Shown here: positions 2,986-41,293 of the stretch, one piece after another
How positions within the stretch are numbered: the stretch's first letter is position 1
How the letters are laid out: every line of letters starts with the position of its first letter
Program-made: the position numbers and the translations under genes
Notes under the pieces: model-generated
Told to the model about the DNA's origin: nothing
The model's input: only the letters and a program-made list of their open reading frames with translations
The model's database searches: none
Assembly (NCBI GenBank): GCA_041661745.1
Contig: JBAZTR010000004.1
Coordinates: 12,961-76,960 of the forward strand
Source: Patescibacteria group bacterium
Lineage (GTDB): Bacteria > Patescibacteriota > Patescibacteriia > UBA9934 > GWF2-40-263
Direction of reading: 5' to 3'
DNA: 64,000 nucleotides

Positions 2986-2993
2986 ATTTTTAG

Positions 2994-3072
2994 GTTTGAG
3001 TATGTAGTATGTAGTGGGTAGGCAATAGATCAAACTGAAACTTTTGCCTACATGCTACCTACTACATACTAC
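2994..3072. repeat. Palindromic element PE-Y (gtatgtagtatgtagtgggtaggcaatagatc … gcctacatgctacctactacatac)
   Basis: About 80-bp imperfect palindrome. Five copies in the window: 2994, 7645, 24395, 28241 and 34063. All lie immediately 5' of minus-strand gene starts. Confidence 0.85.
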
Positions 3073-3084
3073 CAACTACCGCCG

Positions 3085-4095: not shown

Positions 4096-4154
4096 TCATT
4101 TCCCCCTTGTTACGCCGAAGTCGAGCTTAGCTCGACAAATCCAGCTAAGCTGGA

Positions 4155-6170
4155 TCAAAAACCGACTTCAATGTTCAAGTCTTTAGCCAAGCCAAACGCT
4201 CCAGTGTAATTATCGTCACCCCAAAAATCAGTCAGTTCAGCCGGCGTGGCAGACATCACCTTCTTATCAAAATCCAAGGTCGTGGTCAAACCGTATTCAG
4301 CCGCGCCCAGTTGTTTTACAACATTTAAAGAATAATGACCGGAAGCAACCATGGTTGTAATTGAATCAGGTAGATAATATTCAAAAGACAGGCGACCACT
4401 TTCGCCGGGTTCGATGGAAATAAACGCGCCAAAAACCGTTAAATCAAGTTCTTGACCAACATCAACCGCACCGGCCGCGCCGGAAGGATTTTTTAATTTA
4501 TCATTAGCTAGCATTCCTAAACCGCTAATGAATTGGCTGCCCTTAGGAACATAAACCCGAGTGTAGGTTCGATACCGCGTAGTTTTCCAATCAAAGACTC
4601 CTTGATGTTCGTACTTAATGGTTACCTTGCCGATAAAACGACCGTCGCCGCTTGGTTTAATCGAATAAGAAATATCACGCAATACTTCAGGATCGGTTTT
4701 TAACGCGGCCAAGTTGGCATCAATTACCATTAAGAAATCACCATCAGATTTTTCTACCACTCCGCCCCAGCCGGCGTTACGAATAATTTCTTCAGTCTCA
4801 AGGGAAGAATTGGAAAAAAGAGCAATTTGCTTGTCGGATAAATTTTTCTCAACAGCCGAAACCACCGGCCCCCAGGCAGAAAACGGTAAGTCAAAAATTT
4901 TACCTTTCATTTCATTAAACAACGAAGTGATAATATCCTTGCGCTGTGCGTACGGCACGCCTGATTCTTGAAAACCGATTTCCACTTGATATTCGAGAGT
5001 GTCGGTAATGTTATCGGCGGAAAAAGTTTGATTACCAACAACAATCGGACCGGTGATTTTAAGCAAATCAGCGACAAAAGTTGGGGTGATGCCAATAACC
5101 CCATCAAAAGAAATCGGTTCTTGCACGGCGTTTCTTTGTTCGGATGGAATGGATAAAACTTCGGCCGTAAACATGCTAATGGCATTTCTGGCGGAAACGG
5201 AAAAATCAGGCGACCAATTGCTGTCGCGGAAAAACCATTTATTAGCTCCCAAATATTTTTTAAGCGGGGTTGGCGGTTCAAGTGAATAATAGGGATTAGC
5301 CGCCTCGTCTAAAAGATAAGAATCTTTAAGTTCAAGTTCGCGAATTTCGCCATCCTCAACCCGCAAAATTCCGTAAGTCCCGATAAATCCGCCGGCCGGT
5401 CGCATTTCCGTATTGTTTTCAAGAAGTAAGAGGAAATTCTTTTCTTCGCCCAAACCGGTAAAAGCCGGAATAATTCGCGCGGCCGTGGCCGCTAAAAACA
5501 AACCGTCGTAAACCTGATCTAAAGTATTTTCGATTTTTCGAACAACCGTGCCCATGGGCTCCGGGACATCGCCCAAATCATCAATATTATTTTTAATCAA
5601 ACCGGCTTTTTCCGCGACCAAAGCTAAATCGGGGGCCGCGCCGTTAATTCGTTGTAAAACAATTCGTTTAACTGTCGGCGACATATCGTCGTACTGAAGC
5701 GGTAAAAATTCGCCAACCTCACCGGTGACATTTTCGGTTTCGCCAATGAGTCGGGTAATATCCGCCCCCAAATCGGCAATGTCATCAACTAAAGCAAAAA
5801 GATCTGATGATGAATCTAAAAGAGTTTCAGCAGCCACCACCTGCTCGCCAACCCATGGTAAAAATTTAAGCCAGGCAATACGTTTAAAAGAGCGGTCGGC
5901 TTTGACAAAAGCGATTTCGGCCGCATCAAGAGAAACTTTAGCCTCATCAAAAGAAAAAACCTCAACAGCATCCTTGGCTTCATACAAACGATCACGGCCG
6001 TCTAATAAAGATGTGACCACCAACCCGGCATTAACCGCTGTCCAAATCGCCGTTAAACCAATTAAAAGAGATAATAAAAATAAACCGACCTTAAAAAACC
6101 GGCGGCGCGTGATTTTCTTTTTTTCCAAAGGCGGAGCGTAATGCGCTAAAAATTCGGAATCATGACTCAT
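4155..6170 (-). CDS. Large N-terminally membrane-anchored extracytoplasmic protein (DUF4012-like)
   Basis: 671 aa with a single N-terminal TM helix after a basic stretch, then a long extracellular region. It sits in a cell-wall glycosylation neighbourhood (GT4, MreB, GT2). The family call is tentative. Confidence 0.4.
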   Translation of the reverse strand: MSHDSEFLAHYAPPLEKKKITRRRFFKVGLFLLSLLIGLTAIWTAVNAGLVVTSLLDGRDRLYEAKDAVEVFSFDEAKVSLDAAEIAFVKADRSFKRIAWLKFLPWVGEQVVAAETLLDSSSDLFALVDDIADLGADITRLIGETENVTGEVGEFLPLQYDDMSPTVKRIVLQRINGAAPDLALVAEKAGLIKNNIDDLGDVPEPMGTVVRKIENTLDQVYDGLFLAATAARIIPAFTGLGEEKNFLLLLENNTEMRPAGGFIGTYGILRVEDGEIRELELKDSYLLDEAANPYYSLEPPTPLKKYLGANKWFFRDSNWSPDFSVSARNAISMFTAEVLSIPSEQRNAVQEPISFDGVIGITPTFVADLLKITGPIVVGNQTFSADNITDTLEYQVEIGFQESGVPYAQRKDIITSLFNEMKGKIFDLPFSAWGPVVSAVEKNLSDKQIALFSNSSLETEEIIRNAGWGGVVEKSDGDFLMVIDANLAALKTDPEVLRDISYSIKPSGDGRFIGKVTIKYEHQGVFDWKTTRYRTYTRVYVPKGSQFISGLGMLANDKLKNPSGAAGAVDVGQELDLTVFGAFISIEPGESGRLSFEYYLPDSITTMVASGHYSLNVVKQLGAAEYGLTTTLDFDKKVMSATPAELTDFWGDDNYTGAFGLAKDLNIEVGF

Positions 6171-6196
6171 AATTCCCTACCTGACATCTTACCATT

Positions 6197-7246
6197 TTAC
6201 CTAAACCATTGGCTAATACTCCGACGCGGGACTTTGCGTCGCAACAAAATTTCCCGGCGCTTGCGCCACATTATTGGCAAGCCAGCAAAAAATTGCCAAA
6301 TAGCTCGAATGTTAGTGGGCTCAAAAAAACAAACGTAAACAAAGCGCAGCGCTTCGGCCGGCTTAATCCAGATCCCGGCCAAAAGCCAATCAACAAAACT
6401 CATGTTTTTGATGAGCAACCACCAGTGGTTGCGGGTGGAATAAAAACTGCGCATTTTGGATTTTCGCCGACGATTGCGAATGCGTTCAAAAAAGCTGGCC
6501 CGCTCCTTGCCATACATACCGCGAGCATGATGAGCCACGGCCTCGGGAACAAAACGCGCTTCCCAGCCAAGACTTTGAAAACGCCAGGCCAAATCAATAT
6601 CTTCTTTGTAAGCAAAAAAATCTTCGTCAAAATATTCGCTTTCGGACATTTTAACATCCTCCAAAGCCGAAGCTCGATAAAAACCAAAACCGGCACAAAC
6701 ACCAAAAACTTCACGAGCCGCGTCAAACTGCCCTTGGTCAAGTTCCCCGCCGCCGCGTTCGTAGAACCAGCGATACTTGTTGCCGCGAAGCCCGGTGGTG
6801 TCGATAACATCGGAATTAGTGTGTTCGCGTAAAACTTCGTCAGTACCGTTATCTTGAAACGAACGCAAAAGTTTTGGGGTAAAACTGGCGGCTTCGGGAT
6901 GAGCTTCGGCTTCTTTAATCAGTTCTTCTAAACAGTTTGGCCGAAAAACAATATCGGGATTAATGGTAACGCAATAACAGTGACTTAAATCTTCGCCCTC
7001 CCAATGCTTTATGGCGTACTTAATAGCCTGATTATGAGCCGCACCAAAACCGAGATTACGAACATTCCTAACGATCGTGACCGTGGGATATTTTTCACGC
7101 AACCATTTTTCCACGCCGTCACTTGAGCCGTTATCAACCACGCGTACGACAAAATCTTTGTAGGTTTGTTTTTCAATTGATTCAAAAAGATCCGGCAAAT
7201 CGGACATGCTGTTCCAGGCGACGATGTGAAGGGAGATTTTGGGCAT
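6197..7246 (-). CDS. Glycosyltransferase family 2
   Basis: N-terminal VVDNGSSDG / NLGFGAAHNQ GT-A fold (DXD-type) motifs. 349 aa. Confidence 0.75.
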   Translation of the reverse strand: MPKISLHIVAWNSMSDLPDLFESIEKQTYKDFVVRVVDNGSSDGVEKWLREKYPTVTIVRNVRNLGFGAAHNQAIKYAIKHWEGEDLSHCYCVTINPDIVFRPNCLEELIKEAEAHPEAASFTPKLLRSFQDNGTDEVLREHTNSDVIDTTGLRGNKYRWFYERGGGELDQGQFDAAREVFGVCAGFGFYRASALEDVKMSESEYFDEDFFAYKEDIDLAWRFQSLGWEARFVPEAVAHHARGMYGKERASFFERIRNRRRKSKMRSFYSTRNHWWLLIKNMSFVDWLLAGIWIKPAEALRFVYVCFFEPTNIRAIWQFFAGLPIMWRKRREILLRRKVPRRSISQWFR

Positions 7247-7308
7247 AATTGCCCTTTCACTTTAAAACAAAAACGGGGTTTATTCAACCCCGTTTATTCT
7301 TTATGTTT

Positions 7309-7638
7309 TTACCTAGAAAGTAACGCTACCATCAAAAACATCATAGCTCCAATTAAGACAAACCAGGCCACGGTCATACCCAAAAACCACAAGCCTTCCT
7401 TCTTTTTATTATCCAAATACAAAAGAATCGGTTTCAAGAAAAACAAAATACCCATCATTGCCGTCGAGAGAACAAGAATCATTAGAATAAAAGCCATCAT
7501 CAAAAAATCTGGGACCGAGACGCCAAAGTTGCCAAAAAAGTCTTCGCTGGAAAGCGTCAGGGTGAGGATAACGATATAAGCAACTGCCCCGGCGGCATGA
7601 TAAAACGGATAAAGGATATTTTTGTAGAAATTTTTCAT
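7309..7638 (-). CDS. Small integral membrane protein (3 TM)
   Basis: Hydrophobic 110-aa ORF. The first 6 codons of the track ORF (to 7656) translate the PE-Y element, so Met at 7638 is preferred. Confidence 0.5.
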   Translation of the reverse strand: MKNFYKNILYPFYHAAGAVAYIVILTLTLSSEDFFGNFGVSVPDFLMMAFILMILVLSTAMMGILFFLKPILLYLDNKKKEGLWFLGMTVAWFVLIGAMMFLMVALLSR

Positions 7639-7644
7639 ATTTTT

Positions 7645-7726
7645 GGGTTTGAGCATGTAGTAGGTAGTATGTAGGCAAAAGTTCCCGATTAGATCTATTG
7701 CCTACCCACTACATACTACATACTAA
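7645..7726. repeat. Palindromic element PE-Y (reverse orientation)
   Basis: Reverse complement of the 2994 copy: tagtaggtagtatgtaggcaaaagtt…gatctattgcctacccactacatactacatac. Confidence 0.85.
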
Positions 7727-10502: not shown

Positions 10503-10600
10503 GTCTATTTTTCCTCTTCCCCTCTACCCCTGCCCTCTCCTTCCCAAGGAGAGGGAGATCTCGTGGGCGCTCGACGCGGGGCTGTTTGTTTTTCTTCTCT
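10503..10600. repeat. PE-C family element (cccctgccctctcc-ttcccaa-ggagagggag) plus conserved tail gctcgacgcggggctgtttgttttt
   Basis: Inverted repeat plus a tail shared with 11040 and 17860. Confidence 0.75.
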
Positions 10601-10946
10601 ATTTTCTAACAATCTCCGACTTAAAAAACTTTTCCTGAAAATTGGTCAGCTGCCTTATGTCATCATCACTTACTTTATTCCCTTCCGGCACAACAATCAA
10701 TTTGTCGTCGTCATCGTTTGTGCGGTGAATTACGGCGATGCAACGACCGGTAAAATCTTGCAACGTTTCGGTTACACCCAAAACATATACATCAATTTCT
10801 TCCCCATCCGGAGCTTTGGTGTCGGGCACGAAGCCGTAGTTTACCTCGTACACAAACCCATACTTGGGATGTAACGAACCAAGCGGACGATCAATTTTAA
10901 CTGTAACGGTTTGATTTAGATATTGAGTGTATAAATTGGCGAGCAT
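10599..10946 (-). CDS. Short family-I inorganic pyrophosphatase-like protein
   Basis: DRPLGSLHPKYGFVYEVNYGFVPDTKAPDGEEIDVYVLG matches the PPase active-site region (YPxNYGFIPxTxxxDGDPxDVLV). The track ORF to 11123 adds 59 codons that are a translated PE-C repeat, so Met at 10946 is preferred. Confidence 0.55.
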   Translation of the reverse strand: MLANLYTQYLNQTVTVKIDRPLGSLHPKYGFVYEVNYGFVPDTKAPDGEEIDVYVLGVTETLQDFTGRCIAVIHRTNDDDDKLIVVPEGNKVSDDDIRQLTNFQEKFFKSEIVRK

Positions 10947-10956
10947 ATTTTTAAAG

Positions 10957-11128
10957 TTATTTTCTTCCTCTCCCCCTCTATCCCCCTCTCCAAGTCCCTC
11001 TCCCCAACCCTCCCCCACTGCGGCAGTGAGGGAGGGAGATCTCGTAAGTGCTCGACGCGGGGCTATTTGTTTTTTAAAAAACCCTTCGTCCACTTCGTCC
11101 CCCTCAACCCCTTCGTCCCCCAAATCTT
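10957..11128. repeat. Compound PE-C element plus conserved 85-nt module
   Basis: cccctctccaagtccctctcccc…gggagggagatctcgt, then gtgctcgacgcggggctatttgttttttaaaaaacccttcgtccacttcgtccccctcaaccccttcgtcc. The second part recurs inverted at 17797..17885. Confidence 0.8.
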
Positions 11129-11952
11129 TTTCTTGGTTTATTAAATGCCAAAAAATTCTGTCCAGTCACAATACTTTTGCCGATTTTTTGTTCCAGTTCC
11201 CTTCTGGCGTTTTTGGCGATTCGCCCGCCTTTCTTGGCCGGAACCTTATTTTCCTCAAAACCCTTCGTTGCCTCGACCTCGGCAATCTGTCGCGTGGAAA
11301 GTTCGGCCAGAGCCGTGAAAACCAATTCCGCATCAGACATATGATCGCGCAAATTTTGCGTTTTAAGATTTTTTAATTTCTTATGATCTTTAACAGTTAG
11401 GTCACTCCATTCCTTATGAATAATGTTAGTTAAAATGGCGAATTCGTTTTGTTCCTTGACTTCATTATTTTTCCAATAGTCGGTCAGCTTATTTCGCACC
11501 TCTTGCCCCATCATTCGTTGTTGAATCCATTTATCACTCCGACCCATTCTTTGCCAATATTCTCTGGAACGGTTTAAAGCTTTCTCTGGATCAGATATTT
11601 CTTGAATCCTCTCGTAACCGACTTTGGCTAACCACAATTTAACCGGTTCGGCTTTTGGGCTGGGGATAGACTGAATAATTCTAAAAATTTGTTCCGGATT
11701 ACCAGCCAAGGTCTTTCTTTTTTTCCCTGTCTCGGTAATCATTTCTACCTGGGGACAGTTTGTCCCTAGGTAGTTTCCGAGTTCAACGTCCCTTTTTCTA
11801 AGTTTTTTAACATAATCAGTCGGATTATTACTTTCCGTAAGCACGGCCACAATATCAATCACGGAAAAAAACCAAGTTTCGGTTTTTTCATCATAATAAC
11901 GGCGGATTTTAAAATTTTCAAAAACAGCTAAAGATTTTTGGTTATTTGACAT
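11104..11952 (-). CDS. Bro-N domain protein (DinD / phage antirepressor-like)
   Basis: The N-terminus LAVFENFKIRRYYDEKTETWFFSVIDIVAVLTE fits the Bro-N fold. 282 aa. The 3' end runs into the repeat module. Confidence 0.55.
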   Translation of the reverse strand: MSNNQKSLAVFENFKIRRYYDEKTETWFFSVIDIVAVLTESNNPTDYVKKLRKRDVELGNYLGTNCPQVEMITETGKKRKTLAGNPEQIFRIIQSIPSPKAEPVKLWLAKVGYERIQEISDPEKALNRSREYWQRMGRSDKWIQQRMMGQEVRNKLTDYWKNNEVKEQNEFAILTNIIHKEWSDLTVKDHKKLKNLKTQNLRDHMSDAELVFTALAELSTRQIAEVEATKGFEENKVPAKKGGRIAKNARRELEQKIGKSIVTGQNFLAFNKPRKRFGGRRG

Positions 11953-12110: not shown

Positions 12111-12215
12111 TTCTTTATTTTTTTAATCTTTCCTCCCCGCAAATCCCTCTCCCCTTACCCTCCCCCGTCGTGGCGACGAGGGAGGGAGAACTCACAGGAT
12201 CTCTGCTGATCCACC
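12111..12215. repeat. PE-C family element (ccctctcccc…cccgtcgtggcgacgagggagggaga)
   Basis: C/G-tract arms around a cgtcgtggcgacg palindrome. Confidence 0.7.
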
Positions 12216-12355: not shown

Positions 12356-12421
12356 GGTTTAAAAAAGCCCTTTCTTTCCCCACCTTTCTTTGGGCTAGCA
12401 AAGAAAGGTGGAAAGAGAAGA
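12356..12421. repeat. Standalone palindrome (ctttctttccccacctttctttgggctagcaaagaaaggtggaaagagaag)
   Basis: About 20-bp inverted arms. It sits directly downstream of the 12422..12784 gene on the minus strand and could act as a terminator. Confidence 0.5.
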
Positions 12422-12784
12422 TTAACAAGTTGTATGAAAGAGGGCGTTGATATGTTTTCCTTCAGATATTAGACGGTTGTAAACAACAAGCGCTTCTGGC
12501 GTTTTTTCTACCACCACCTCAACCCCGGCCGCGCGACAAGCAGCCAAAAAATCCTCATCAATCTCAAGTTTTCCATCCTGACCAGTACCAACAATAATCA
12601 CCTCTGGTTTATTCGACAAAAGTTTTTCTGTTTCCCACGGTCCAAGGCGATGAGAGGTGCCGAACAATTCTTTCAAGCGCGGATAATCGCGCTCTTCGAT
12701 TTGATCGCCAATAATCAAAACCTGATCGAATTTTTTGTTGTCGATGATTATAAAACCGAATTCGGTGGAATCAATATGAGGCAT
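12422..12784 (-). CDS. Mth938-like domain protein (DUF498)
   Basis: Length and motif pattern (IIVGTGQDGKL…EALVVYNRLISEGKHINALFHTTC). 120 aa. Confidence 0.6.
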   Translation of the reverse strand: MPHIDSTEFGFIIIDNKKFDQVLIIGDQIEERDYPRLKELFGTSHRLGPWETEKLLSNKPEVIIVGTGQDGKLEIDEDFLAACRAAGVEVVVEKTPEALVVYNRLISEGKHINALFHTTC

Positions 12785-12788
12785 AAAA

Positions 12789-14102
12789 TTATAAAGACTC
12801 TAAAAATTTCATTACCCGCTTATCCGGAATAAGATGCCGTAACTCCAATGGTGTACGAAGGAATATTCCCCCCAAACTGCGACAGCGACTTAGGGCCACA
12901 TAAACCTGGCCCGAAGCAAAAGCGCCATAACCCAAATCAATGGCCACGCGGTCGAAAGTTTTACCCTGACTTTTGTGAATGGTCACGGCCCAGGCCAAGC
13001 GCAGGGGCATTTGTTTAAAGCTGCCGATTTTTTCGCGTTCTAAACAGCGGGTTTTGTTGTCGTAAGCAAAGCGAAACAAATTCCAGGTGTACGCTTCGAC
13101 CACAACTTCGTCACCGTTGTCTAAGGTCACAACAATTTCCCGCTCACCAAGTCTTTTAACGGTGCCAAGCGAACCGTTAACCCAGCGATCCAAAGAATCG
13201 TTATTCAAAAACATGACGCGAGCGTTTACCTTCAAAGTCAAAGCTTCATCAGTCGGGGCGTCTTTGTCTTGAAACCGCCCCTGGGCTTCAGCTTTATATA
13301 TTTTAGCTTTTTCGGACAAAGATGACAGTCGACTAAAATTTATCCGATCAGCCAGCTTGTTGGTGGTGGTAAGGATAATGGCTTCGTCGATAACCTCCTC
13401 GTCTTCCATATCAACGCAACGCGAATTCAAGGTCTTTAAATGTTCATGCCCGGCCGAACAATTACGAACGGCGTTTAAGACTTCAATAAACTTTTTATCA
13501 CTTTGCCGATAAATCTTTTCCAGCTCAACAAATGACAGACCGTCGGTGTCCTCAAAAATTTCCTTCATGACCTTGGCCGAAAAAAAGTACGGGGTTTCAT
13601 AAACCTTGGCCAAAGCTTCGGCTTCATCATCACGCACCACCGGCGGCAGTTGGTACAAGTCGCCAATCATCACCATTTGCTTTCCGCCAAACGGTTCCTT
13701 GTTACCCATGACGGCTTTTAAAAAAACATCAATGGCATCAAAAAGATCAGCCCGGACCATGGAAATTTCATCAATGACAATGGTTTCCACTTCGCGATAA
13801 AGCTCGTTCTCGCGAGCCTGGCGGCCTTCCCTTTTGGCTTCCTTTAAAGTAATGCCCGGGCGAATCAAGAAAAACGAATGAATGGTCTGCCCCTCAACAT
13901 TCAACGCGGCCACCCCGGTGGGGGCCAAAATCACCGCTTTCTTTTTGGTGGTATCACGAAAATGCCGGAGCAGGGTTGATTTACCTGTCCCGGCGCGGCC
14001 GGTAATAAAAACCGGCCGTTTGGTGTTTTCCATTATATCCAACGCGTGGACGAAATGTTTGTTTATGTCGAGGCGAGGTTTCATGTCTGAATATTCTATC
14101 AC
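12789..14102 (-). CDS. PIF1/RecD-like superfamily-1 DNA helicase
   Basis: Walker A FITGRAGTGKST, Walker B VIDEISMV, and the C-terminal TIHKSQGKTFDRV motif typical of the PIF1/RecD family. 437 aa. Confidence 0.8.
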   Translation of the reverse strand: MIEYSDMKPRLDINKHFVHALDIMENTKRPVFITGRAGTGKSTLLRHFRDTTKKKAVILAPTGVAALNVEGQTIHSFFLIRPGITLKEAKREGRQARENELYREVETIVIDEISMVRADLFDAIDVFLKAVMGNKEPFGGKQMVMIGDLYQLPPVVRDDEAEALAKVYETPYFFSAKVMKEIFEDTDGLSFVELEKIYRQSDKKFIEVLNAVRNCSAGHEHLKTLNSRCVDMEDEEVIDEAIILTTTNKLADRINFSRLSSLSEKAKIYKAEAQGRFQDKDAPTDEALTLKVNARVMFLNNDSLDRWVNGSLGTVKRLGEREIVVTLDNGDEVVVEAYTWNLFRFAYDNKTRCLEREKIGSFKQMPLRLAWAVTIHKSQGKTFDRVAIDLGYGAFASGQVYVALSRCRSLGGIFLRTPLELRHLIPDKRVMKFLESL

Positions 14103-14210
14103 ATTTTTAAAACCCCTTTGTCACTTTATAAGATTAAGCCGAAGGAGATGAAATTGATGAGGGTTTTTAAAAAAAGACGGCTACTAAATTTTGTTAATCA
14201 AACAAAAAAA

Positions 14211-15125
14211 TTACTGTAAACAATGCTGCATGAATATCATTACTAAATTTAAAACTAACCGTGCAGTCTTTTCATTAGCATACTCTTTCTTAGGATGGGG
14301 GTCCCCTTTTGTTTGTCTTTCCTGCATTAAAATTGATTCAATATCTTTAAAAATTTTAACGGTAAAAGAATTATTAGGAATCAGCTCTTTTCTTTGAGCT
14401 TCTTTTATTAAAATCCCGAGATCACCCTTACCAATTTCTCCGTTAACAATTATTTGCATAAACCCCTGCAGAGCAGCGCAAGCCAAGGTGATTGAAGAAC
14501 TATAGCCTTCTTCTGTATTTTTCAAATACGCAGACGTTGCGTTTCTAAAATCACGACTAACCGGTTCCCATTTTTTATGTCCTAAACAATTTAGTACTGG
14601 CTCAAAAATTTCCTTTGTTATTTTTTCATCTTGCCGAAGGATAAAACCCTCTTTGTTTAATAAAACGTTCAAACCGAATTGATTAGAAATATCGTTAAAT
14701 AAATCTATAAAGTCGATTATACGTTCTTCTCTTAAAACACCGATATAATATGAAATTAACTCATAGAAAACATCCTGCGTTTCTTCGTGAAAAATATGGT
14801 CAAAGTCCCTCTGGGCGGCATCTGGACAACATGTTTCTATTGACTGCCAGCCGCCTTCATCTCTTAAATGTGGGCCGCCATGCTGCTGCAAATTATTACA
14901 AAATGACCTAGCTTTATTATCTTCGTTAAATTGATATATCGTTTGATGAATTCCTTTGTCAACACCGAACCAGCCTTTATTAATAAAACACAACCAAATA
15001 TTTTTTTTCTGGTTCCGGTCAATTTCATCCCAAGAACGTATGCCCAGGTTAGGACGTAAAACCTCTCGTGCGGTGGAATTAGAATGTGACCATTTATCAA
15101 ATGTCATACTTTTAATTTTTTTCAA
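14211..15125 (-). CDS. Hypothetical protein, low GC (about 38%); possible defense/abortive-infection-like
   Basis: 304-aa ORF with no motif I recognise. Compositionally AT-richer than neighbours and adjacent to the helicase. Confidence 0.35.
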   Translation of the reverse strand: MKKIKSMTFDKWSHSNSTAREVLRPNLGIRSWDEIDRNQKKNIWLCFINKGWFGVDKGIHQTIYQFNEDNKARSFCNNLQQHGGPHLRDEGGWQSIETCCPDAAQRDFDHIFHEETQDVFYELISYYIGVLREERIIDFIDLFNDISNQFGLNVLLNKEGFILRQDEKITKEIFEPVLNCLGHKKWEPVSRDFRNATSAYLKNTEEGYSSSITLACAALQGFMQIIVNGEIGKGDLGILIKEAQRKELIPNNSFTVKIFKDIESILMQERQTKGDPHPKKEYANEKTARLVLNLVMIFMQHCLQ

Positions 15126-15217
15126 TCTACTTCTTACAAATTTTTCCGTCTCCTTATCAACAAAATAAACATAACAAAACTTTTCTTAATCTATTTTCTC
15201 TCAAGATTCAGTGTAAT

Positions 15218-16162
15218 TTAAACTGCCGCCTCCGCCCGTTCTAACAACAAATTAATATCAAATCTAGCGCCGGGATCTCGCAAGTTATCATCGACCTCTC
15301 TGACTGCGTCGTAGGAAAGAAATTTAACCGCCTTATCAAGTCCTAAATATTCACTTGAAAAAGTCGGCCGTTTTAACTGTTCAAAAACTTTTATTTTTCT
15401 ATCCCTATCAGCAACGATAAAAAGTGGATAGTTAGAATTAGGGGCCAGTGTTCTTAAATCGGATAAACGCAGAATTCCGGAATAAATACTAGTTGAGTGC
15501 TCGATTTCAAAAGCCGACTTAATTGAGTTGCCAAGTTTCCAAACCGTGTCAATGTTTTTCACATAAGACGGAACATCGATCACATCGTGAAACTCCGGAA
15601 CAACAAAATCTCTAAAATTATTTCCCTCAAATGTTTTATTTTGATCGCCGGCCGGTACCCAAACATCAAAGTTTGACTTATTTCCCAGACGAATGAGGCG
15701 CCATTGAATTTCGCTGTGCTCGGTTGGGGCACGCTCGATCTTATCATCCAAAGACAGAAACGTGGAATTAAATTCCTCTGGGTTTATTTCGATTTCTTCT
15801 AATTTCTCTCCTTTCTCTAGCTTTTGAAGAAGAGAAACGAGGTCTCCATAACTAGATAGTAAATTGTTTACTTTCTTCTGGTCTATTCCCATGAAGCCCT
15901 GCGGGTGATAATTTTTTTCATACCCAAGATATTCATTCAGTTTTTCTATCTCAACATTAAACTCAACATCATTAATCATGAAGTAGATGTATTCCCAAGT
16001 TTGGCCGCCTTCATCTGTTTGCCAAAAATATTTTGCCAGCTCGTGGTTATGCACCTTCACGGCGATTTCCGCGGCTAAAATAATTTTCCCTTTTCTATAG
16101 ACCATTACATAGTCTCCTTCCTCCATTAAATCCCAATTTCTAATATTGCTTTTCCCAGGCAT
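15218..16162 (-). CDS. Hypothetical protein; C-terminal region with a possible PD-(D/E)xK-like nuclease signature
   Basis: 314 aa. The C-terminus DVIDVP…AFEIEHSTS resembles a D…ExK-type motif. This is weak. Confidence 0.3.
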   Translation of the reverse strand: MPGKSNIRNWDLMEEGDYVMVYRKGKIILAAEIAVKVHNHELAKYFWQTDEGGQTWEYIYFMINDVEFNVEIEKLNEYLGYEKNYHPQGFMGIDQKKVNNLLSSYGDLVSLLQKLEKGEKLEEIEINPEEFNSTFLSLDDKIERAPTEHSEIQWRLIRLGNKSNFDVWVPAGDQNKTFEGNNFRDFVVPEFHDVIDVPSYVKNIDTVWKLGNSIKSAFEIEHSTSIYSGILRLSDLRTLAPNSNYPLFIVADRDRKIKVFEQLKRPTFSSEYLGLDKAVKFLSYDAVREVDDNLRDPGARFDINLLLERAEAAV

Positions 16163-16347
16163 TGCCCCCCCCAGACAGCATAAGGTCGGCCGTGTGAGTA
16201 TTCCTTGAGCTTATCAACCTCATCGGGCGACAAAAACTTAGCAGCCTCCTCCACTGTTCTTTTATTTTTAATAGTTTCGTAATAGTGTCTATCAGTGTCG
16301 TGCCCACCGCCAGCCATTACGAAAAATATTTTTCTTGTTCTACTCAT
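16126..16347 (-). CDS. Small hypothetical protein (73 aa)
   Basis: ORF overlapping the start of 15218..16162 by 37 nt. There is no recognisable domain. Confidence 0.3.
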   Translation of the reverse strand: MSRTRKIFFVMAGGGHDTDRHYYETIKNKRTVEEAAKFLSPDEVDKLKEYSHGRPYAVWGGQCLGKAILEIGI

Positions 16348-16359
16348 AATTTTTCATTA

Positions 16360-16445
16360 ATTCCCCTCCATCCTCCCACTTTCAAACGAAAAGATCAACC
16401 CAATTTAAACCTCCTCCCACCTCACCCCTGCCCTACCAAAATATC
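16360..16445. repeat. PE-C-like C-tract element (ttcccctccatcctccc…cctcctcccacctcacccctgccctacc)
   Basis: C-tract words shared with the PE-C family. Confidence 0.5.
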
Positions 16446-16856: not shown

Positions 16857-16917
16857 ATATCTTTCACAAACCTTCCGAGAGACCGGGAGGTTTTTTAAAT
16901 TAACAAAAATCCAATCA

Positions 16918-16946
16918 TTGACAAAAACCAATTTCTCCCCTACTCT
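16918..16946 (+). promoter_or_regulatory. Sigma70-like promoter ttgaca-N17-tactct for the alpha-CTD-like gene
   Basis: ttgaca at 16918 and tactct after a 17-nt spacer. GGAGGA Shine-Dalgarno sits 4 nt before ATG 16977. Confidence 0.5.
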
Positions 16947-16976
16947 GCCCACATCAAACCGGGTTCTGGAGGAAAT

Positions 16977-17282
16977 ATGTCCGACCAGTTTTATGGACTC
17001 AACGACCGAGAGTTGGAACTTCTTCTGAAGAGCGTGGACGACTTCAAAATGTCGACCCGACTCAGAAACTGCTGCGAGCACGCTGGGGTGGGATGGGTGT
17101 GGCAGATGGTCAAGCTCAACAAAGCCGAGCTGCTCGCCGAAGAGCCGCGGCGCTTCGGTCCCAAGTCGATCAAGGAGATGGAGGAACTTCTCTTGCCTAT
17201 CGGTCTTTCCATGGGCCGCAACTTCACCAGGGAGCAGCTGACGTTCCTCAACGGCTGTTCCAATCCGGCCGGTACGGCCTAA
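16977..17282 (+). CDS. Stand-alone RNA polymerase alpha-subunit C-terminal-domain (alpha-CTD)-like HhH protein
   Basis: STRLRNCCEHAGVGWVWQMVKLNKAELLAE-PRRFGPKSIKEMEELLLPIGLSMG aligns to E. coli RpoA alpha-CTD [54 protein letters not shown]. GC-rich, 101 aa. Confidence 0.65.
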   Translation: MSDQFYGLNDRELELLLKSVDDFKMSTRLRNCCEHAGVGWVWQMVKLNKAELLAEEPRRFGPKSIKEMEELLLPIGLSMGRNFTREQLTFLNGCSNPAGTA

Positions 17283-17372
17283 CCACATCTCGCTCTCCAC
17301 TGTTTTCTGGTGGAGTTTTTTAAATCTCTCAAAAAAAAATAAAACCTCAGCAGTGCTGAGGCAGAAGTCAGT
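17283..17372. terminator. Bidirectional intrinsic terminators between convergent alpha-CTD-like genes
   Basis: ctccactgttttctggtggag+T6 for the plus gene. cctcagcagtgctgagg followed on the minus strand by ttttattttttttt for the minus gene. Confidence 0.7.
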
Positions 17373-17385
17373 GACGAACGGACGA

Positions 17386-17718
17386 TCAGGTCCGTCGGGC
17401 GTTGAGGGCATGCTCGAGGCCACGGAAGGCTCGGCTGAACTCGCGAGCCCCCTCGATGAGGCTCGGGTGGTCCAGGGCTTCCACCTTGGCGGCGATCTCA
17501 GGGTCGTCCGGGATCTGGGGCAGGCCGAGCCGGTTGAGCTGGCGGTTGATGCAGCGCCAGGTGTCTTGGCCGTAGCCGCGCCGGTGAGCGAGGTCGCGAC
17601 GGGTGAGCTGGGTCACATCGCCGGCCGTGCAGCAGTGGTGGCGCGCGGCGAGGTAGTTGACGAGGTTGCGATCGAAACCGGCTTCGACAAGCAAAAGCGA
17701 GGCGGAATCTTGACACAT
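17386..17718 (-). CDS. Stand-alone alpha-CTD-like HhH protein (paralog)
   Basis: NLVNYLAARHHCCTAGDVTQLTRRDLAHRRGYGQDTWRCINRQLNRLGLPQ follows the same alpha-CTD pattern, including a Cys pair. GC-rich, 110 aa. Confidence 0.6.
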   Translation of the reverse strand: MCQDSASLLLVEAGFDRNLVNYLAARHHCCTAGDVTQLTRRDLAHRRGYGQDTWRCINRQLNRLGLPQIPDDPEIAAKVEALDHPSLIEGAREFSRAFRGLEHALNARRT

Positions 17719-17796
17719 GTAATCTCCGGGGTTGGGGGCGACAAAAGGTTTGTATCAAAAAAAACAAAATTGATCAACTTGCTTGGGAGTTTTTTA

Positions 17797-17885
17797 ATTT
17801 AGAAAAGGACGAGGGGTTTGAGGGGGACGAAGAGGACGAAGTGTTTAAAAAACAAAAAGCCCCGCGTCGAGCACCGAAGGACAGC
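17797..17885. repeat. Conserved 85-nt module, inverted copy of 11040..11128
   Basis: Its reverse complement reads gtgctcgacgcggggctttttgttttttaaacacttcgtcctcttcgtccccctcaaacccctcgtcc. Confidence 0.8.
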
Positions 17886-18115
17886 CCGGCTGAAGCGGCC
17901 CTTACCTTCAGTTGGTCGGCGAGCTATGTTCGAGTGCAGCCCCGCAACTTGCTTGACTTAACAATCGAGCAAGGTGCAGGGGCCAGCGAGTTAGCGAGCC
18001 GTGGCCGCTGAAGGCGGTTAGCTGTCCGAGGAGCGGAGACAGGGGCAGTGTTTCTTTTGCTGTGTCCACCGAAGCTCGGCGAAGGAGGATAACTTTTCTT
18101 TGCGACAAAGAAAAG

Positions 18116-18760
18116 TTAATAAGAAGACTCCCTTAAACACTTTCGAAATTTTCTAAAATCAGGACAATGTAAAGCCACCAATTGCCAAAAAGCGCGCGAA
18201 TGATTTTTGTGCGGAATATGCGCCAGCTCGTGCACCACGACATAATCAACAACTTCCAGCGGTTGAAGAATTAATTTCCAACCAAAGTTAAGATGATTTT
18301 TGTGGCTGCACGAGCCCCAGCGTTTTTGGGCGCTGTTAATTTTTATCGAAGTAAAATTCACTCCCATTTGTTTAGCATACAAAGTGGCCCGTTCGGTAAT
18401 TATTTCTTTGGCTTCCTGTTTATACCAAGCAGCCATTTTAATTTTAGCTTTAGGCAAAAACTTTTGGGGAAAAAGTAAATCGCCTTTTAGCTCGATCTTT
18501 TTAACTTTAGAAATTTTTAAGGGATAACTTTCCCCCAAGTACCAAAACACTTCCCCGTCGACGAATTCTTTTGGTTGTGACTTGGGGCGATTTTTAACGG
18601 CGACAATTTTCTTTTGAATCCAGGACATTTTATCTTGCACTAATTTTTCAATATAAACTTCCGAAACTCGCTGGGGTGCCCGAATTATCAAAACCGCCTC
18701 GGGAGTTATCTCCAGGCTGATAGTGCGGCGGTTGGAACGGATGATTTTTGCGGTTTCCAT
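18116..18760 (-). CDS. M48-family / DUF45 (YgjP-like) zinc metallopeptidase
   Basis: HELAHIPHKNHS zinc-binding motif near the C-terminus. 214 aa. Confidence 0.7.
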   Translation of the reverse strand: METAKIIRSNRRTISLEITPEAVLIIRAPQRVSEVYIEKLVQDKMSWIQKKIVAVKNRPKSQPKEFVDGEVFWYLGESYPLKISKVKKIELKGDLLFPQKFLPKAKIKMAAWYKQEAKEIITERATLYAKQMGVNFTSIKINSAQKRWGSCSHKNHLNFGWKLILQPLEVVDYVVVHELAHIPHKNHSRAFWQLVALHCPDFRKFRKCLRESSY

Positions 18761-18779: not shown

Positions 18780-18960
18780 AATATATTTTATCCTCACCAG
18801 TGCCCCCCCCGTTTCCCCTCACCCTTACCCTCTCCCTGCCAAGATCAGATGGGAGAGGGGGTGGTGTTATTTCGTCACAGGGGATTCCCCTCCCCCATCT
18901 GCTTTTTTAGCAGGGGGAGGGGTTAGGGGAGAGGGGCCAACAACACGAACGGGGCGGCGC
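18780..18960. repeat. Compound PE-C palindromic module (inter-cassette element, copy 1)
   Basis: ccctctccctgccaagatcagatgggagaggggg … cccctcccccatctgcttttttagcagggggaggggttaggggagaggggcc. Near-identical modules at 19741..19900 and 21541..21750. Confidence 0.85.
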
Positions 18961-18997: not shown

Positions 18998-19030
18998 AGT
19001 ATGCCCCCTTTTAGAAAAAGGAAAGAAACC

Positions 19031-19720
19031 ATGCAGGACACCATTAAGCATCTTCTCCTTATTGCCCGACTCACAGCACTGGCCAACAAGGTCAACGGAG
19101 TGATCACCGATAAAAGGCAGGAAAAGACGATCACAAAGCTGATCATGGGGGGATTGGTTCGCACTATCCTCTGGGGCGTGCTCTGGTACGTTCCACTCTG
19201 GCTTCTGGGGGACCCTTCGTTCCTTATGAAGCTCCTCTGGGCCAACCTGATCGTCAGCGCGATGCTCTTCGTTGTGCACGCAGTTGTTCCAAGCAACGTG
19301 ATCACTCGAAGGATGCAGCGGCAAAAGATTAAGACGAAAGGACCTATGGCGATCTTCGGTCTGTTCATTGTCATCTTCTTCATGCCCACAGCATTACTCT
19401 TCGCGGTGAAGGCGGGCGACCAGTACCAGGAGGTCTTGGCCGGCAAAATCCTGCGCGACGACCGGGCCACGCTCTTTTCGCGAAACGGACATCTGATCAA
19501 ACTCGTTGAGGAGTATTTTGTGAGGTCTGGAAAAGAGATGGACAAAACCGTCATGGATCAGGTCTGGGTGCTGGAGCAGGAGCTGCTCGACTTTTCCGAG
19601 CGAACTGGCGAGCTCGGCGAAAGCAACGAAATCACCTGGCCGGAGACCGAGCCTTTCCTCAGAAGAGTTGAGAGGCTGATCGACGAACTCACTGTCTTGA
19701 CTGGCAACACTTCCTCTTAA
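19031..19720 (+). CDS. GC-rich cassette gene 1: membrane protein (3–4 TM) with cytoplasmic C-terminal domain
   Basis: The track ORF starts at 19001, inside the promoter. Met at 19031 after AAGGAAAG is preferred. TM segments are LVRTILWGVLWYVPLWLL, LLWANLIVSAMLFVV and IFGLFIVIFFMPTALLFAV. GC is about 58%. Confidence 0.55.
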   Translation: MQDTIKHLLLIARLTALANKVNGVITDKRQEKTITKLIMGGLVRTILWGVLWYVPLWLLGDPSFLMKLLWANLIVSAMLFVVHAVVPSNVITRRMQRQKIKTKGPMAIFGLFIVIFFMPTALLFAVKAGDQYQEVLAGKILRDDRATLFSRNGHLIKLVEEYFVRSGKEMDKTVMDQVWVLEQELLDFSERTGELGESNEITWPETEPFLRRVERLIDELTVLTGNTSS

Positions 19721-19742
19721 CCCTCACCTGAGGGATTTTTTA
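19721..19742 (+). terminator. Cassette terminator cctcacctgagg + T-run
   Basis: Conserved hairpin (atcctca-cc-tgaggat) plus a T-tract after each of the three cassette genes, at 19721, 20484 and 21511. Confidence 0.6.
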
Positions 19743-19900
19743 TTCCCTCTCCTTCTGACGGCCATACCCCTCACCCCCTGCCCCTCTCCCTGCCAAGATC
19801 AGAGGGGAGAGGGGTTGTAAACTTTGTCACGAAAAGTTCCCCTCCCCCATCTGCTTTTTTAGCAGGGGGAGGGGTTAGGGGAGAGGGGCCAACACATGAG
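19741..19900. repeat. Compound PE-C palindromic module (inter-cassette element, copy 2)
   Basis: Near-identical to 18780..18960. Confidence 0.85.
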
Positions 19901-19902
19901 GG

Positions 19903-19931
19903 GAGGGCTTTCTGGACACAAACCAAAAACA
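19903..19931 (+). promoter_or_regulatory. Conserved cassette promoter tggaca-N17-taaaaa
   Basis: Same motif and spacing as at 18969. Confidence 0.6.
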
Positions 19932-19981
19932 ATGTTAAAAACACAAAAGTCGGCAAGCCTCTCGGCGGTGCGGAGGGAAAG

Positions 19982-20434
19982 ATGAAAATCGAACTAACCA
20001 CTCGTATGAGCGTACGTGTGGTCACGGGCGATCTGTCGGCAGACGTCCACCTCGAGGATCGTCGTTTGAAAGCACTGATTGCCCTCGCGTATAAATTCAA
20101 GGGTGAATGCGTCACCCTTGTCATCGATCCGATGATGGAAGAGGAAGCGACCTCGATCATCGACTCGATCGCGGGTCTCAACGGTGAGGGAGCCGACCAG
20201 ACAATCAACGGCCGACGCCTGGATGTGCACGAGCTCAGGGTTGATTGCGGAAACCAGCGCGGTATTGTCGTGAACCCCCACAACCCGAGATGCGATCTGC
20301 TTCTCCTCATGAGCATCGCAATCAAATCAGAACAGCTCACCGTCGAACTGCCGCCAACCGACACCATGGCCGAACTCGTCGACCGAATCTCGGTCTACCC
20401 CTTCCCGCACAAGGAAAGGGTCATGCCAGAATAA
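19982..20434 (+). CDS. GC-rich cassette gene 2: hypothetical soluble protein (150 aa)
   Basis: GGAGGG Shine-Dalgarno 5 nt upstream. GC about 60%. No domain recognised. Confidence 0.55.
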   Translation: MKIELTTRMSVRVVTGDLSADVHLEDRRLKALIALAYKFKGECVTLVIDPMMEEEATSIIDSIAGLNGEGADQTINGRRLDVHELRVDCGNQRGIVVNPHNPRCDLLLLMSIAIKSEQLTVELPPTDTMAELVDRISVYPFPHKERVMPE

Positions 20435-20483
20435 CTTAGCCACGCTGTAGCTCGCCACGAGCGAAGGCGGGACGCCACCCTCT

Positions 20484-20509
20484 CGATCCTCACCTGAGGA
20501 TCTTTTTAT
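20484..20509 (+). terminator. Cassette terminator (gatcctcacctgaggatc + T5)
   Basis: Conserved hairpin plus T-tract. Confidence 0.6.
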
Positions 20510-20550
20510 TTCTGGCTGGTCTCCTACTCTCCCAGCTTCCTAGTCTCCTA
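20505..20550. repeat. PE-T family fragment (ctcctactctcccagcttcctagtctcctaaca)
   Basis: Shares ctcctag/cctagtctcc words with the elements at 22166, 33533 and 41294. Confidence 0.5.
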
Positions 20551-20556
20551 ACACTC

Positions 20557-20585
20557 TGGACACAAATCCAAAACTATGATAAAAA
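20557..20585 (+). promoter_or_regulatory. Conserved cassette promoter tggaca-N17-taaaaa
   Basis: Same motif and spacing as the other two cassette promoters. Confidence 0.6.
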
Positions 20586-20622
20586 TCTGGGTCGCAAATT
20601 CCGCGCGACTCTGGAGGATTCC

Positions 20623-21492
20623 ATGAACGTAATCCATGATGGAGAAACCGGAGGCATCCGGGTGTTCTTCGGGGAAACCGTGATCGACATCGACCCCCGC
20701 GATCCGCGCTGTCATGGGCTGCTCAACGACCGGGGGTTCATGAAGATCGCCAACATCAAGTGCGGTTCGATCTTGATCGTCTTCGGCCGGAGCTTGAGGA
20801 CGAAGACGGCCCGCATGATGGGCGAGATCATGTTCGGCTGGACCCTCACCAATTCCTCGAACTCGCAAATCGTCGCCGAAAGAGGGGTGCGTGTGAGGAT
20901 CGGCGGCTGGAAGCCCATGCCCGTGCCGCACAACTGCGATATGTTCGAGCTCCTCGAACACGCGGACGCGCTGTACTTCGACACGATGGAGATCCGAACG
21001 AAGGCTTCGGAGGTGGCAGCCAGGGCCTTGGGGCCGTTCATCATGATCCCCTTCGTTCCGCCCGAGCCGACCCCGAGCGAACTGGCCATCGCCGAGTTCA
21101 GGAGAAGGACCGGCGTGGAGCCGACTTCGGTGCTGCTCGAAGCAGAGGCCGAGGATGCTCCCGAACCACCGGTGGCGGTTCCGGCTGGCGCCGAAGCGAA
21201 CTCCCCCATCCCCGGCCTCACGCCGGAGCAGGTCAAGAACCTGATCAGGCGATGCGACGAGCTGGGGTTCACCACTCGTGTGACGAACGGCCTCAGGACC
21301 GTCGGATGTGAATTCGTCTACCAGGTGGTGGAAAAAACCGGACCCGAGACGCTCGGGGCCAAGGGCCTCGGTCGCAGGTCCAATAATGAGCTCAGGGTGA
21401 TTCTCGCCGAACTCGGGCTCAGCTTCGGCATGAACTTCACCACCGAACAGCGAGCCGCTCTCGAGCGCCTGGCTCACCAGCTGCCGCGCTGA
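20623..21492 (+). CDS. GC-rich cassette gene 3: two-domain protein with C-terminal alpha-CTD-like HhH domain
   Basis: The C-terminus TTRVTNGLRTVGCEFVYQVVEKTGPETLGAKGLGRRSNNELRVILAELGLSFGMNFTTEQ parallels ORFs 16977 and 17386. The N-terminal 200 aa have no recognisable domain. GGAGGA Shine-Dalgarno. Confidence 0.6.
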   Translation: MNVIHDGETGGIRVFFGETVIDIDPRDPRCHGLLNDRGFMKIANIKCGSILIVFGRSLRTKTARMMGEIMFGWTLTNSSNSQIVAERGVRVRIGGWKPMPVPHNCDMFELLEHADALYFDTMEIRTKASEVAARALGPFIMIPFVPPEPTPSELAIAEFRRRTGVEPTSVLLEAEAEDAPEPPVAVPAGAEANSPIPGLTPEQVKNLIRRCDELGFTTRVTNGLRTVGCEFVYQVVEKTGPETLGAKGLGRRSNNELRVILAELGLSFGMNFTTEQRAALERLAHQLPR

Positions 21493-21510
21493 TCGCCCCC
21501 CCCTCCCCTT

Positions 21511-21537
21511 CGATCCTCACCTGAGGATCTTTTTTTA
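21511..21537 (+). terminator. Cassette terminator (gatcctcacctgaggatc + T7)
   Basis: Conserved hairpin plus T-tract. Confidence 0.6.
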
Positions 21538-21540
21538 ATT

Positions 21541-21750
21541 CCCTCTCCTTCTGAGCCGTTGTACCCCTCACCCATACCCCCGTGCCGATGTCACCCCCCC
21601 CCTCACCCCTGCCCCTCTCCCTGCCAAGATCAGAGGGGAGAGAGGTTGTAGACTTTGGCACAAAAAGTTCCCCTCCCCCATCTGCTTTTTTAGCAGGGGG
21701 AGGGGTTAGGGGAGAGGGGCCAACACGTGAGGGGAGGATTGAGGAGAGGG
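21541..21750. repeat. Compound PE-C palindromic module (copy 3, extended)
   Basis: Near-identical core to 18780 and 19741, with additional C-tract arms. Confidence 0.85.
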
Positions 21751-21953
21751 CCGACTGGACATCCTAATAGCATCTGGTAAACTAAAAATATTATGAAAGG
21801 CTTAACCGCCCAATTTGGCTTCTTTAGCTTCTGCTTTACCAAAGCGGGTGGTTTAGTTCTCTCTTAAAAGATAAATAAGAGGCCGCCCGCGTTCCCACGC
21901 GAGCGGTCTTTTGTTTTGTCCCTGATCCCGTAACCAGGCAAGGAGGAAAAGTC

Positions 21954-22115
21954 ATGGCCGCCACGAACCAAAACCGTGAAGATCCGCGTCGCTACACTGA
22001 AACGACCGACACTACCGGACAGCGTCTGGCCGTTGATCAGGACGGCAACAAGTTCCTTCTTCGGGCGGACCAGATCGTCTACAACGGTCAGGTCTACAAT
22101 CTCGGGGGCTTCTAG
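21954..22115 (+). CDS. Small GC-rich protein (53 aa), not in the ORF track
   Basis: AAGGAGGA Shine-Dalgarno 5 nt upstream of the ATG. A clean terminator follows at 22129..22157 (ggcagaa-aacac-ttctgcc + T7). Sequence: MAATNQNREDPRRYTETTDTTGQRLAVDQDGNKFLLRADQIVYNGQVYNLGGF. Confidence 0.45.
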   Translation: MAATNQNREDPRRYTETTDTTGQRLAVDQDGNKFLLRADQIVYNGQVYNLGGF

Positions 22116-32247: not shown

Positions 32248-32305
32248 AACCCAGCTATTTTACCAGAAAAATAAAAAACCCGCCTATCTGGGTGATGGCG
32301 GGCGG

Positions 32306-33472: not shown

Positions 33473-33532
33473 AGTGGACTCCGATGAAAAGGAACAGTGG
33501 AGGAGTATCTAAACAAAAAAAGAACCGACTGT

Positions 33533-33582
33533 CTAGTCGATTCTGCCTAGTCTCCTAGCTTCCTACCCTCCTAGCCTCCTAA
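33533..33582. repeat. PE-T family element (cctagtctcctagcttcctaccctcctagcctcct)
   Basis: Identical 35-mer to the reverse complement of 41297..41331. Confidence 0.75.
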
Positions 33583-41290: not shown

Positions 41291-41293
41291 TTA

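Follow-up and report, generated by a model that had tools for sequence, protein, structure and literature searches.

This report concerns a block of genes at positions 12422-16445 of a 64-kb window of DNA from a Patescibacteria group bacterium (contig JBAZTR010000004.1; the window is the whole stretch that was analysed, and coordinates are given in it). An earlier note on this DNA had described the block as a helicase-plus-unknowns set of low GC content, bracketed by repeats, and had proposed it as a candidate defence island. An identical sequence forms part of a 128-kb metagenome contig (ENA ERZ27249449 k141_1363778); the bacterium belongs to the candidate phyla radiation. All four open reading frames (ORFs) that the note had listed were recovered where it had placed them, on the minus strand, which is the gene-bearing strand of the block; a further gene, encoding a DUF498 protein at 12422-12784, had been missed. 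Along the direction of transcription the order is a 73-amino-acid (aa) ORF, a 314-aa ORF, a 304-aa ORF, a 437-aa helicase and a 120-aa DUF498 protein. The first two belong to one restriction-endonuclease (REase) gene and the third encodes a HEPN-domain protein, so that the features of the block are as follows.

16126-16347, minus strand: 73-aa ORF, the 5′ part of the REase gene (ORF list)
15218-16162, minus strand: 314-aa ORF, the rest of the REase gene (ORF list)
15218-16347, minus strand: single REase gene broken by a frameshift, with a reader at about residues 1-180 and an NmeDI_C-type nuclease at about residues 210-351
16165-16172, minus strand: homopolymer of eight G on the coding strand (C8 on the plus strand), breaking the frame within the reader domain beside the invariant W59
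14211-15125, minus strand: AbiJ-like HEPN-domain protein, predicted ribonuclease (RNase) and abortive-infection effector, 304 aa
12789-14102, minus strand: bacterial Pif1-family SF1B helicase, 437 aa (PF05970, phrog_325)
12422-12784, minus strand: DUF498 (Mth938-like) protein, 120 aa (PF04430, 1.8e-17)

The REase, HEPN and helicase genes lie on the same strand, separated by gaps of 92 and 108 bp. Their base composition is not uniform. A guanine-plus-cytosine (GC) content of about 38% had been quoted for the block, a figure that suits part of it only: the stretch 14103-16445, which holds the HEPN and REase genes, has 37.0% GC, the minimum among all 2.3-kb windows of the 64 kb, 0.3% of which reach so low a value, while the block as a whole has 40.7%, the window 45.9%, the DUF498 gene 42.7% and the helicase gene, at 46.8%, sits at the window mean. 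Low GC is restricted to the HEPN and REase stretch, from which the helicase lies some 10 points apart. We consider it probable that the block is a patchwork, composed of a conserved Pif1-DUF498 operon and, upstream of it, two independent, horizontally acquired single-gene defence modules.

The first of these modules is the REase gene. The ORF at 16126-16347, previously taken for a small overlapping gene in its own right, is no separate gene and represents the N-terminal piece of the endonuclease, split from the remainder at the G8 run. The sequence at the junction of the two ORFs is TGGGGGGGGCAATG, and a single added G fuses the 73-aa and 314-aa ORFs into a protein of 376 aa. This fused protein has 864 database homologues, the best of which are full length (about 373 aa), are 62-72% identical to it and cover 97-100% of the query. 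In an AlphaFold2 model residues 1-180 are well predicted, and residues 1 to about 180 are assigned to a YTH/EVE-like modified-base reader, a PUA-superfamily domain to which the nuclease is joined. In YTH/EVE-like readers the modified base is flipped out into an aromatic cage. The closest structural relative of the reader domain prefers N6-methyladenine DNA; the TgMcrB domain reportedly binds such DNA above unmodified or 5-methylcytosine-containing DNA (PMC7544203).

The suspicion that the product of 15218-16162 ends in a nuclease-like region was borne out. A precomputed Pfam match to NmeDI_C (PF27126) is present on the window's own REase product and on all 120 of the homologues listed, and the PADLOC REase_II model of 351 positions was matched at 177-322 in every one of 36 aligned family members (best 1.4e-12). 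R.NmeDI is itself 351 aa long (PMC2095814), and it is the C-terminal 145 or so residues of our REase that correspond to this NmeDI-length model. Conservation within the family singles out D267, S275-x-K277, E281 and E283 as a candidate active site. Solved structures searched with the single REase sequence gave chance-level matches only, and searches of them with profiles of the REase and HEPN families gave none; weak Pfam matches of the REase to IFS and ATHILA were rejected as spurious. A scan of viral contigs returned no member of the REase family.

The neighbourhoods of the gene bear on its mode of action. In the gene table of the window there is no DNA methylase within about 10 kb of the REase gene. 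Among six loci with REase homologues, a DNA methyltransferase adjoins the homologue in two (L006 and L098) and in none of L003, L004, L097 and L099; as many of the comparison contigs are short, these and the later neighbourhood counts are lower bounds. The homologue adjoins Mrr and HNH nucleases in L003, stands within a ribosomal-protein gene cluster in L004 and lies amid metabolic genes in L097 and L099; in L006 and L098 it is followed, directly adjacent, by Vsr and a C5 DNA methylase. Two side observations may be recorded here. The L004 gene belongs to an insertion of about 6.5 kb (1297-7700) that separates the ribosomal protein genes S10 and L3, and in both L004 and L006 a gene for a 23S-rRNA-intervening-sequence protein lies immediately upstream of the REase. 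L098 (NCBI NJBH01000039.1, 'Promethearchaeota archaeon Loki_b32') is the sole 'archaeal' homologue; the contig also encodes the peptidoglycan genes Mur ligase and FemAB, and it is probably bacterial contamination of an Asgard metagenome-assembled genome (MAG).

On these comparisons a type IV-like, modification-dependent endonuclease is favoured over a type II enzyme, because intact copies are mostly without a partner methyltransferase and because a reader fold of this sort is characteristic of modification-dependent enzymes; PUA-superfamily endonuclease ORFs, with few exceptions, do not lie near DNA methyltransferase ORFs (PMC6765204). The cognate methyltransferase that would stand beside a type II endonuclease is not encoded near the REase gene in the window, and the fusion of a PUA-superfamily reader to a nuclease, the mark of a type IV enzyme, is present, the ORF being interrupted in this genome. 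It is unlikely, though less so than the other alternatives discussed below, that the gene is instead the decaying remnant of a type II restriction-modification (R-M) system resembling NmeDI, with C5 methyltransferase, REase and Vsr, which would have lost its methyltransferase before the nuclease was inactivated. The NmeDI_C type of the C-terminal domain fits such a history, as do the Vsr and C5 methylase genes of L006 and L098, which recall the NmeDI locus, and post-segregational decay would leave just such a frameshifted endonuclease without a methylase. The NmeDI locus also includes a vsr gene. The word 'Vsr' does not occur in the main text of PMC2095814, where nmeDIM is described as overlapping nmeDIR. 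However, intact homologues at 62-72% identity have no adjacent methyltransferase in four of the six loci, an arrangement that a type II enzyme would render lethal; the N-terminal fold and the rarity of methyltransferase neighbours among PUA-superfamily endonucleases (PMC6765204) point the same way, and the decay in the window is limited to one frameshift, with every invariant residue of the family kept.

That frameshift interrupts the reader domain at codon 60-61, where tracts of G6 or G9 would be in frame. Homologues read W-G-A-V-P-G at the junction, from codons TGGGGN with only G4, and the ancestral in-frame tract of the window gene was therefore probably G6. The public annotation carries the gene as two ORFs, of 73 aa and of 295-314 aa. 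An identical G8 occurs in an independently assembled Logan contig of 5.7 kb, and split products alone are found in JGI (146-kb contig), the NCBI MAG (MFA6132181.1), ENA (128-kb contig) and Logan, sources that may have samples in common. Tract-length polymorphism with both on and off alleles was not seen, G8 being the only version across these four sources, and the exact in-frame products of G9 and G6 were not found in a collection of 15 billion proteins. The restriction gene is off in the population sampled, because the G8 run throws the reader domain out of frame from residue 60-61 onwards, and it is most likely a recent pseudogene.

It is doubtful that the run is a switch and not a lesion, acting through phase variation by slipped-strand mispairing or allowing low expression when transcription slips or the ribosome shifts by −1 on G_GGG_GGG. 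The homopolymer does lie within an ORF at a point where relatives have only G4, G/C runs of at least seven are scarce (six in the window), the zero-frame G_GGG_GGG fits the X_XXY_YYZ pattern so that a −1 shift would restore exactly the conserved frame, and the remainder of the gene is undamaged. Against this, it is the off version that recurs in all four sources, the G9 and G6 products are absent from the protein collection, and a stimulatory RNA structure sought 3′ of the run was not found (z-score 0.07). We give equally little credence to the broader proposal that the family of about 373 aa, with YTH-like reader and NmeDI-type nuclease, is an uncharacterised modification-dependent class widespread in Patescibacteria and represented here by a poly-G contingency gene or one that a −1 shift would read through. 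That the gene is intact in the organism and its frameshift an error of assembly or sequencing is more improbable still: homopolymers are error-prone and the gene is otherwise perfectly conserved, but the same split products recur in JGI, NCBI, ENA and Logan, and an in-frame G9 would add a glycine seen in no homologue.

The second module, by comparison, is intact. The 304-aa protein, deposited as WC702_03955 (Patescibacteria group bacterium MAG), has its likely true start at the ATG at 15107, giving 298 aa. Its family is small (65 matches), and all organism-named members are from Patescibacteria. The predicted structure, with a predicted local distance difference test score (pLDDT) of 93.5, contains a four-helix up-down bundle of HEPN type preceded by an N-terminal domain of about 160 aa that mixes helices and strands. 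R270 and H277 are invariant in 56 sequences and form R-x6-H; R270 has a Gln directly after it. In the model the helix 253-273, third of the core, stops where the motif is reached, with H277 placed in the loop that follows. The HEPN catalytic motif Rx4-6H is located at the end of helix 3 (PMC3710099), and R270-x6-H277, at the exact position of that motif in the model, is the predicted catalytic dyad.

The claim that none of these uncharacterised proteins matches a nameable family is overturned: beside the NmeDI_C-type REase, this one is an Abi-type HEPN RNase by prediction. The PADLOC profile PDC-S32 matches the window protein weakly (E = 1e-3, residues 31-246 against profile positions 24-224 of 285) and 38 of the 56 relatives, the best at 2e-11. 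NCBIfam NF046078 (STM4504/CBY_0614) gives 13.4 bits for the window protein against a cut-off of 150 and matches 36 of the 56 (best 3.8e-10). Pfam Abi_C (PF14355) is matched by only two of them (best E-value 0.047), and the window protein, which bears a precomputed Pfam label of 'Abi_C (weak)', has no Pfam match at E ≤ 0.1. CBY_0614 is the type example of the AbiJ-NTD4-plus-HEPN architecture (PMC3710099). All of these matches stay below the curated cut-offs, and the window protein is a divergent relative of AbiJ and no formal member of AbiJ, Abi_C or STM4504_CBY0614.

The genes for the closest homologues (66-67% identical) are flanked by hsdS on one side and hsdR on the other in a type I R-M operon, downstream of which are a YgjP-like gene, Fic and GmrSD; others follow an XRE regulator or adjoin a serine recombinase. 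Among 80 metagenomic loci with HEPN homologues, about 10 show type I R-M genes, five an XRE gene directly upstream and two a Bro-N gene. The protein is likely to be an abortive-infection RNase, one that may act as a second line after type I restriction, the role proposed for HEPN proteins encoded in R-M operons (PMC3710099). The window copy is an orphan, with neither a type I R-M nor an XRE partner.

The helicase was correctly recognised from the outset as PIF1-like. It matches PF05970 with 110.6 bits against a cut-off of 25.9 (residues 23-215) and the Dda-like phrog_325 at 2.5e-84 (residues 17-436), retains an intact Walker A motif, GRAGTGKS, and is a standard bacterial Pif1 of SF1B. It has at least 8000 homologues, mostly from Patescibacteria and many with a C-terminal WYL domain. 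Close relatives are 75-85% identical (tblastn), with up to 86% for the L015 protein by BLASTP; a scan of GTDB genomes with the helicase gave one close relative only. In close relatives the helicase lies beside the same envelope cluster as in the window (a 317-aa membrane protein, DUF6629, TspO, GT2, DUF4012 and MreB), while its opposite side differs: in L015 this holds Bro-N, DUF3800, DUF498, a Panacea antitoxin, PemK and AAA_15, and in L013 a truncated Bro-N, YgjP, Fic and an acidic protein. In the three informative loci of close relatives both the HEPN and REase genes are absent next to the helicase. The helicase, kept beside the envelope cluster as its other side varies among relatives, is for that reason read as an anchor gene bordering a variable region of defence and toxin genes, outside both modules.

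DUF498 begins 4 nt downstream of the helicase gene and is probably co-transcribed with it. The adjacency is not a conserved one, the L015 copy of DUF498 (69% identical) lying three genes away from the helicase. As a side observation, the Uhrbacteria helicase at 3143-4693 of L013, 75% identical and 516 aa long, carries a C-terminal WYL domain that is absent from the 437-aa window copy, and the separate DUF498 gene of the window stands where the L013 protein has this extension.

Neither helicase nor REase was found in any of the 80 HEPN-homologue loci, neither helicase nor HEPN gene in any of the six REase-homologue loci, and the three genes were never seen together in about 90 related loci. The proposal that helicase and unknowns act as one system fails on this count, and the pattern is a coincidence of neighbourhood. 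The idea of a variable, defence-type islet holds: the REase and the Abi-type HEPN gene are missing beside the helicase in close relatives. Our verdict is that this is a genuine but ordinary defence islet and that no new helicase-based system is present.

In the patchwork that we favour, two low-GC single-gene modules would have landed immediately upstream of the conserved helicase-DUF498 operon, at the edge of the variable region. In the first, the YTH/EVE-like domain would flip out and cage a modified base in incoming DNA, tethering the C-terminal NmeDI-type nuclease so that it cuts nearby, and a cognate methyltransferase would be unnecessary. The second would be an intact AbiJ-like protein combining an N-terminal sensor-type domain with a C-terminal HEPN RNase domain, latent until infection is sensed and then cleaving RNA to halt translation, in the manner of abortive infection. 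Its relatives between hsdS and hsdR could serve as a PrrC-like fail-safe for type I restriction.

Several observations weigh against this account. The C-terminal nuclease domain of the REase is poorly modelled, with residues 254-305 at pLDDT below 50, its fold and catalytic residues being taken from sequence-profile matches only. The window HEPN protein alone passes no curated family threshold. The Vsr and C5 methyltransferase beside the REase homologue of L006 and L098 reproduce the gene content of the type II NmeDI system, and the shortness of many comparison contigs makes the neighbourhood counts minima. As for the opposite view, that REase, HEPN protein and helicase form one new multi-gene system in which the helicase translocates on foreign DNA and delivers nuclease and RNase effectors, the shared strand, the short gaps and the partial matches of the helicase domain to the PADLOC candidates PDC-S68 and PDC-M16A can be cited for it, but it is scarcely credible and largely refuted already by the missing co-occurrence (0 of 80 and 0 of 6 loci), by the absence of both genes in the three informative helicase loci, by the difference in GC of about 10 points and by the confinement of the PADLOC matches to the generic P-loop region at residues 19-155.

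Further features of the surroundings, comprising one gene, a hairpin and two families of intergenic repeats, are these.

11104-11952, minus strand: Bro-N domain protein, candidate defence gene (PADLOC PDC-S13, 2.2e-118, almost end to end; Pfam Bro-N, 5.6e-7)
12372-12419, minus strand: hairpin (inverted repeat I9) with 21-nt arms, 86% complementary, and a 6-nt loop, just downstream of the DUF498 stop codon
12135-12190, plus strand: C-rich intergenic repeat with internal hairpin ('PE-C element'; repeat families D2, I6, I8)
11048-11118, plus strand: left copy of an intergenic repeat module (I1, I2), inverted relative to 17807-17875
17807-17875, minus strand: right copy of the module, inverted relative to 11048-11118
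10518-10593, 10999-11118 and 17807-17875: repeat family 1
12135-12190, 18805-18935, 19866-19887 and 21697-21718: repeat family 2

The Bro-N gene is just outside the block as delimited in the earlier note and shares its variable neighbourhood; a span of 5 kb takes in Bro-N/PDC-S13 together with the REase and HEPN genes. In L015 the helicase has a copy of Bro-N, 90% identical, immediately upstream of it, and in L030 and L075 a Bro-N gene is found right next to a HEPN homologue. In relatives with helicases 75-85% identical (tblastn), Fic, PemK, Panacea and AAA_15 take the place of the window's defence genes, so that clustered defence genes variably present among close relatives, as expected of a defence island, are indeed what is found.

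On the other side of the REase gene stands a solitary gene for a YgjP-like metallopeptidase (18116-18760, minus strand). In L007, L008 and L017 the type I R-M operon that contains the HEPN homologue has a YgjP-like gene immediately after its hsdR, and the window gene may be the remnant of a lost type I R-M locus. Between the REase and YgjP genes is a GC-rich stretch (16857-18115, 55% overall and up to 66%, in a genome of 46% GC), with similar patches at 1-1000, 19000-22000, 32000-34000, 40000-42000 and 44000-46000. Within it the plus-strand ORF 16977-17282 encodes a 101-aa stand-alone protein resembling the RNA polymerase alpha C-terminal domain (PF03118, 31.6 bits against a cut-off of 23.8); the public gene call in this region is on the opposite strand. 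Further away, Rfam reports a tRNA of 97 nt at 45532-45628 on the plus strand (50.6 bits, full model 1-71), where ARAGORN, which called no tRNA in the window, is silent; the gene may carry an insertion or intron.

On the gene strand the hairpin at 12372-12419 is followed by GGC-TTTTTT, and it probably serves the helicase-DUF498 unit as an intrinsic terminator; a consensus scan for promoters and terminators remained at background level and did not call it. The repeats that had been described as bounding the block are real elements, but they belong to local intergenic families with C-rich tracts and internal hairpins, two in number and with all copies within 10.5-22 kb. The C-rich pattern has four copies in the window against none expected, with relatives of the 12135-12190 element at 18914, 19866 and 21697, and GCTCGACGCGGGGCT occurs three times against 0.11 expected. 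The two inverted modules of 85 nt reported on either side of the block also exist (31 nt at 97% plus 52 nt at 83% between 11048-11118 and 17807-17875), to which a third, unlisted copy in direct orientation at 10518-10593 must be added. No repeat element coincides with the edges of 14103-16445, and the short two-copy repeats I10 and I14, considered as flanks of that segment, were judged chance matches. The repeats delimit no mobile unit. When translated they lengthen nearby ORFs, as in the N-terminal extension of the pyrophosphatase ORF 10599-11123.

Patescibacteria have tiny genomes with few recognised defence systems, and a catalogue of what they do contain is useful in itself. The most interesting item left by this analysis is the family joining a YTH-like reader to NmeDI_C, with a poly-G tract silencing the window copy: with 864 matches, members 62-72% identical and apparently no characterisation in the literature searched, it is a notable family and a reasonable target for enzymology that might yield a reagent cutting modified DNA. 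Should the contingency-gene reading prove true after all, this would be, to our knowledge, the first phase-variable restriction function described in a bacterium of the candidate phyla radiation.

Comparison with known systems places each gene near, and apart from, a described relative. The helicase has the full SF1B core in common with bacterial Pif1 proteins, including those with a WYL domain, an extension that the window copy does not have. For the combination of YTH-like reader and NmeDI_C nuclease no description was found in the literature searched. PUA-superfamily type IV REases such as the EVE-HNH enzymes VcaM4I and TspA15I carry an HNH nuclease where ours is of NmeDI_C type, and McrB of Thermococcus gammatolerans, with its YTH-like N-terminal domain, differs in that our REase has neither the McrB GTPase nor an McrC partner. 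R.NmeDI of Neisseria meningitidis is a type II enzyme that recognises RCCGGY and cuts on both sides of its site (PMC2095814); the C-terminal nuclease regions are alike, but the N-terminal half is replaced here by the YTH-like reader, and the methyltransferase beside R.NmeDI has no counterpart in most REase-homologue loci, the window included. AbiJ-type proteins (AbiJ-NTD4 plus HEPN) share with the window protein the HEPN fold, the Rx4-6H motif and the N-terminal domain of about 160 aa, although the window protein scores below the curated cut-offs for Pfam Abi_C and NCBIfam NF046078. Finally, PrrC has an ABC-ATPase domain that the window HEPN protein lacks, yet homologues of the latter, found between hsdS and hsdR, are embedded in type I R-M loci like the PrrC/RloC-style HEPN nucleases.

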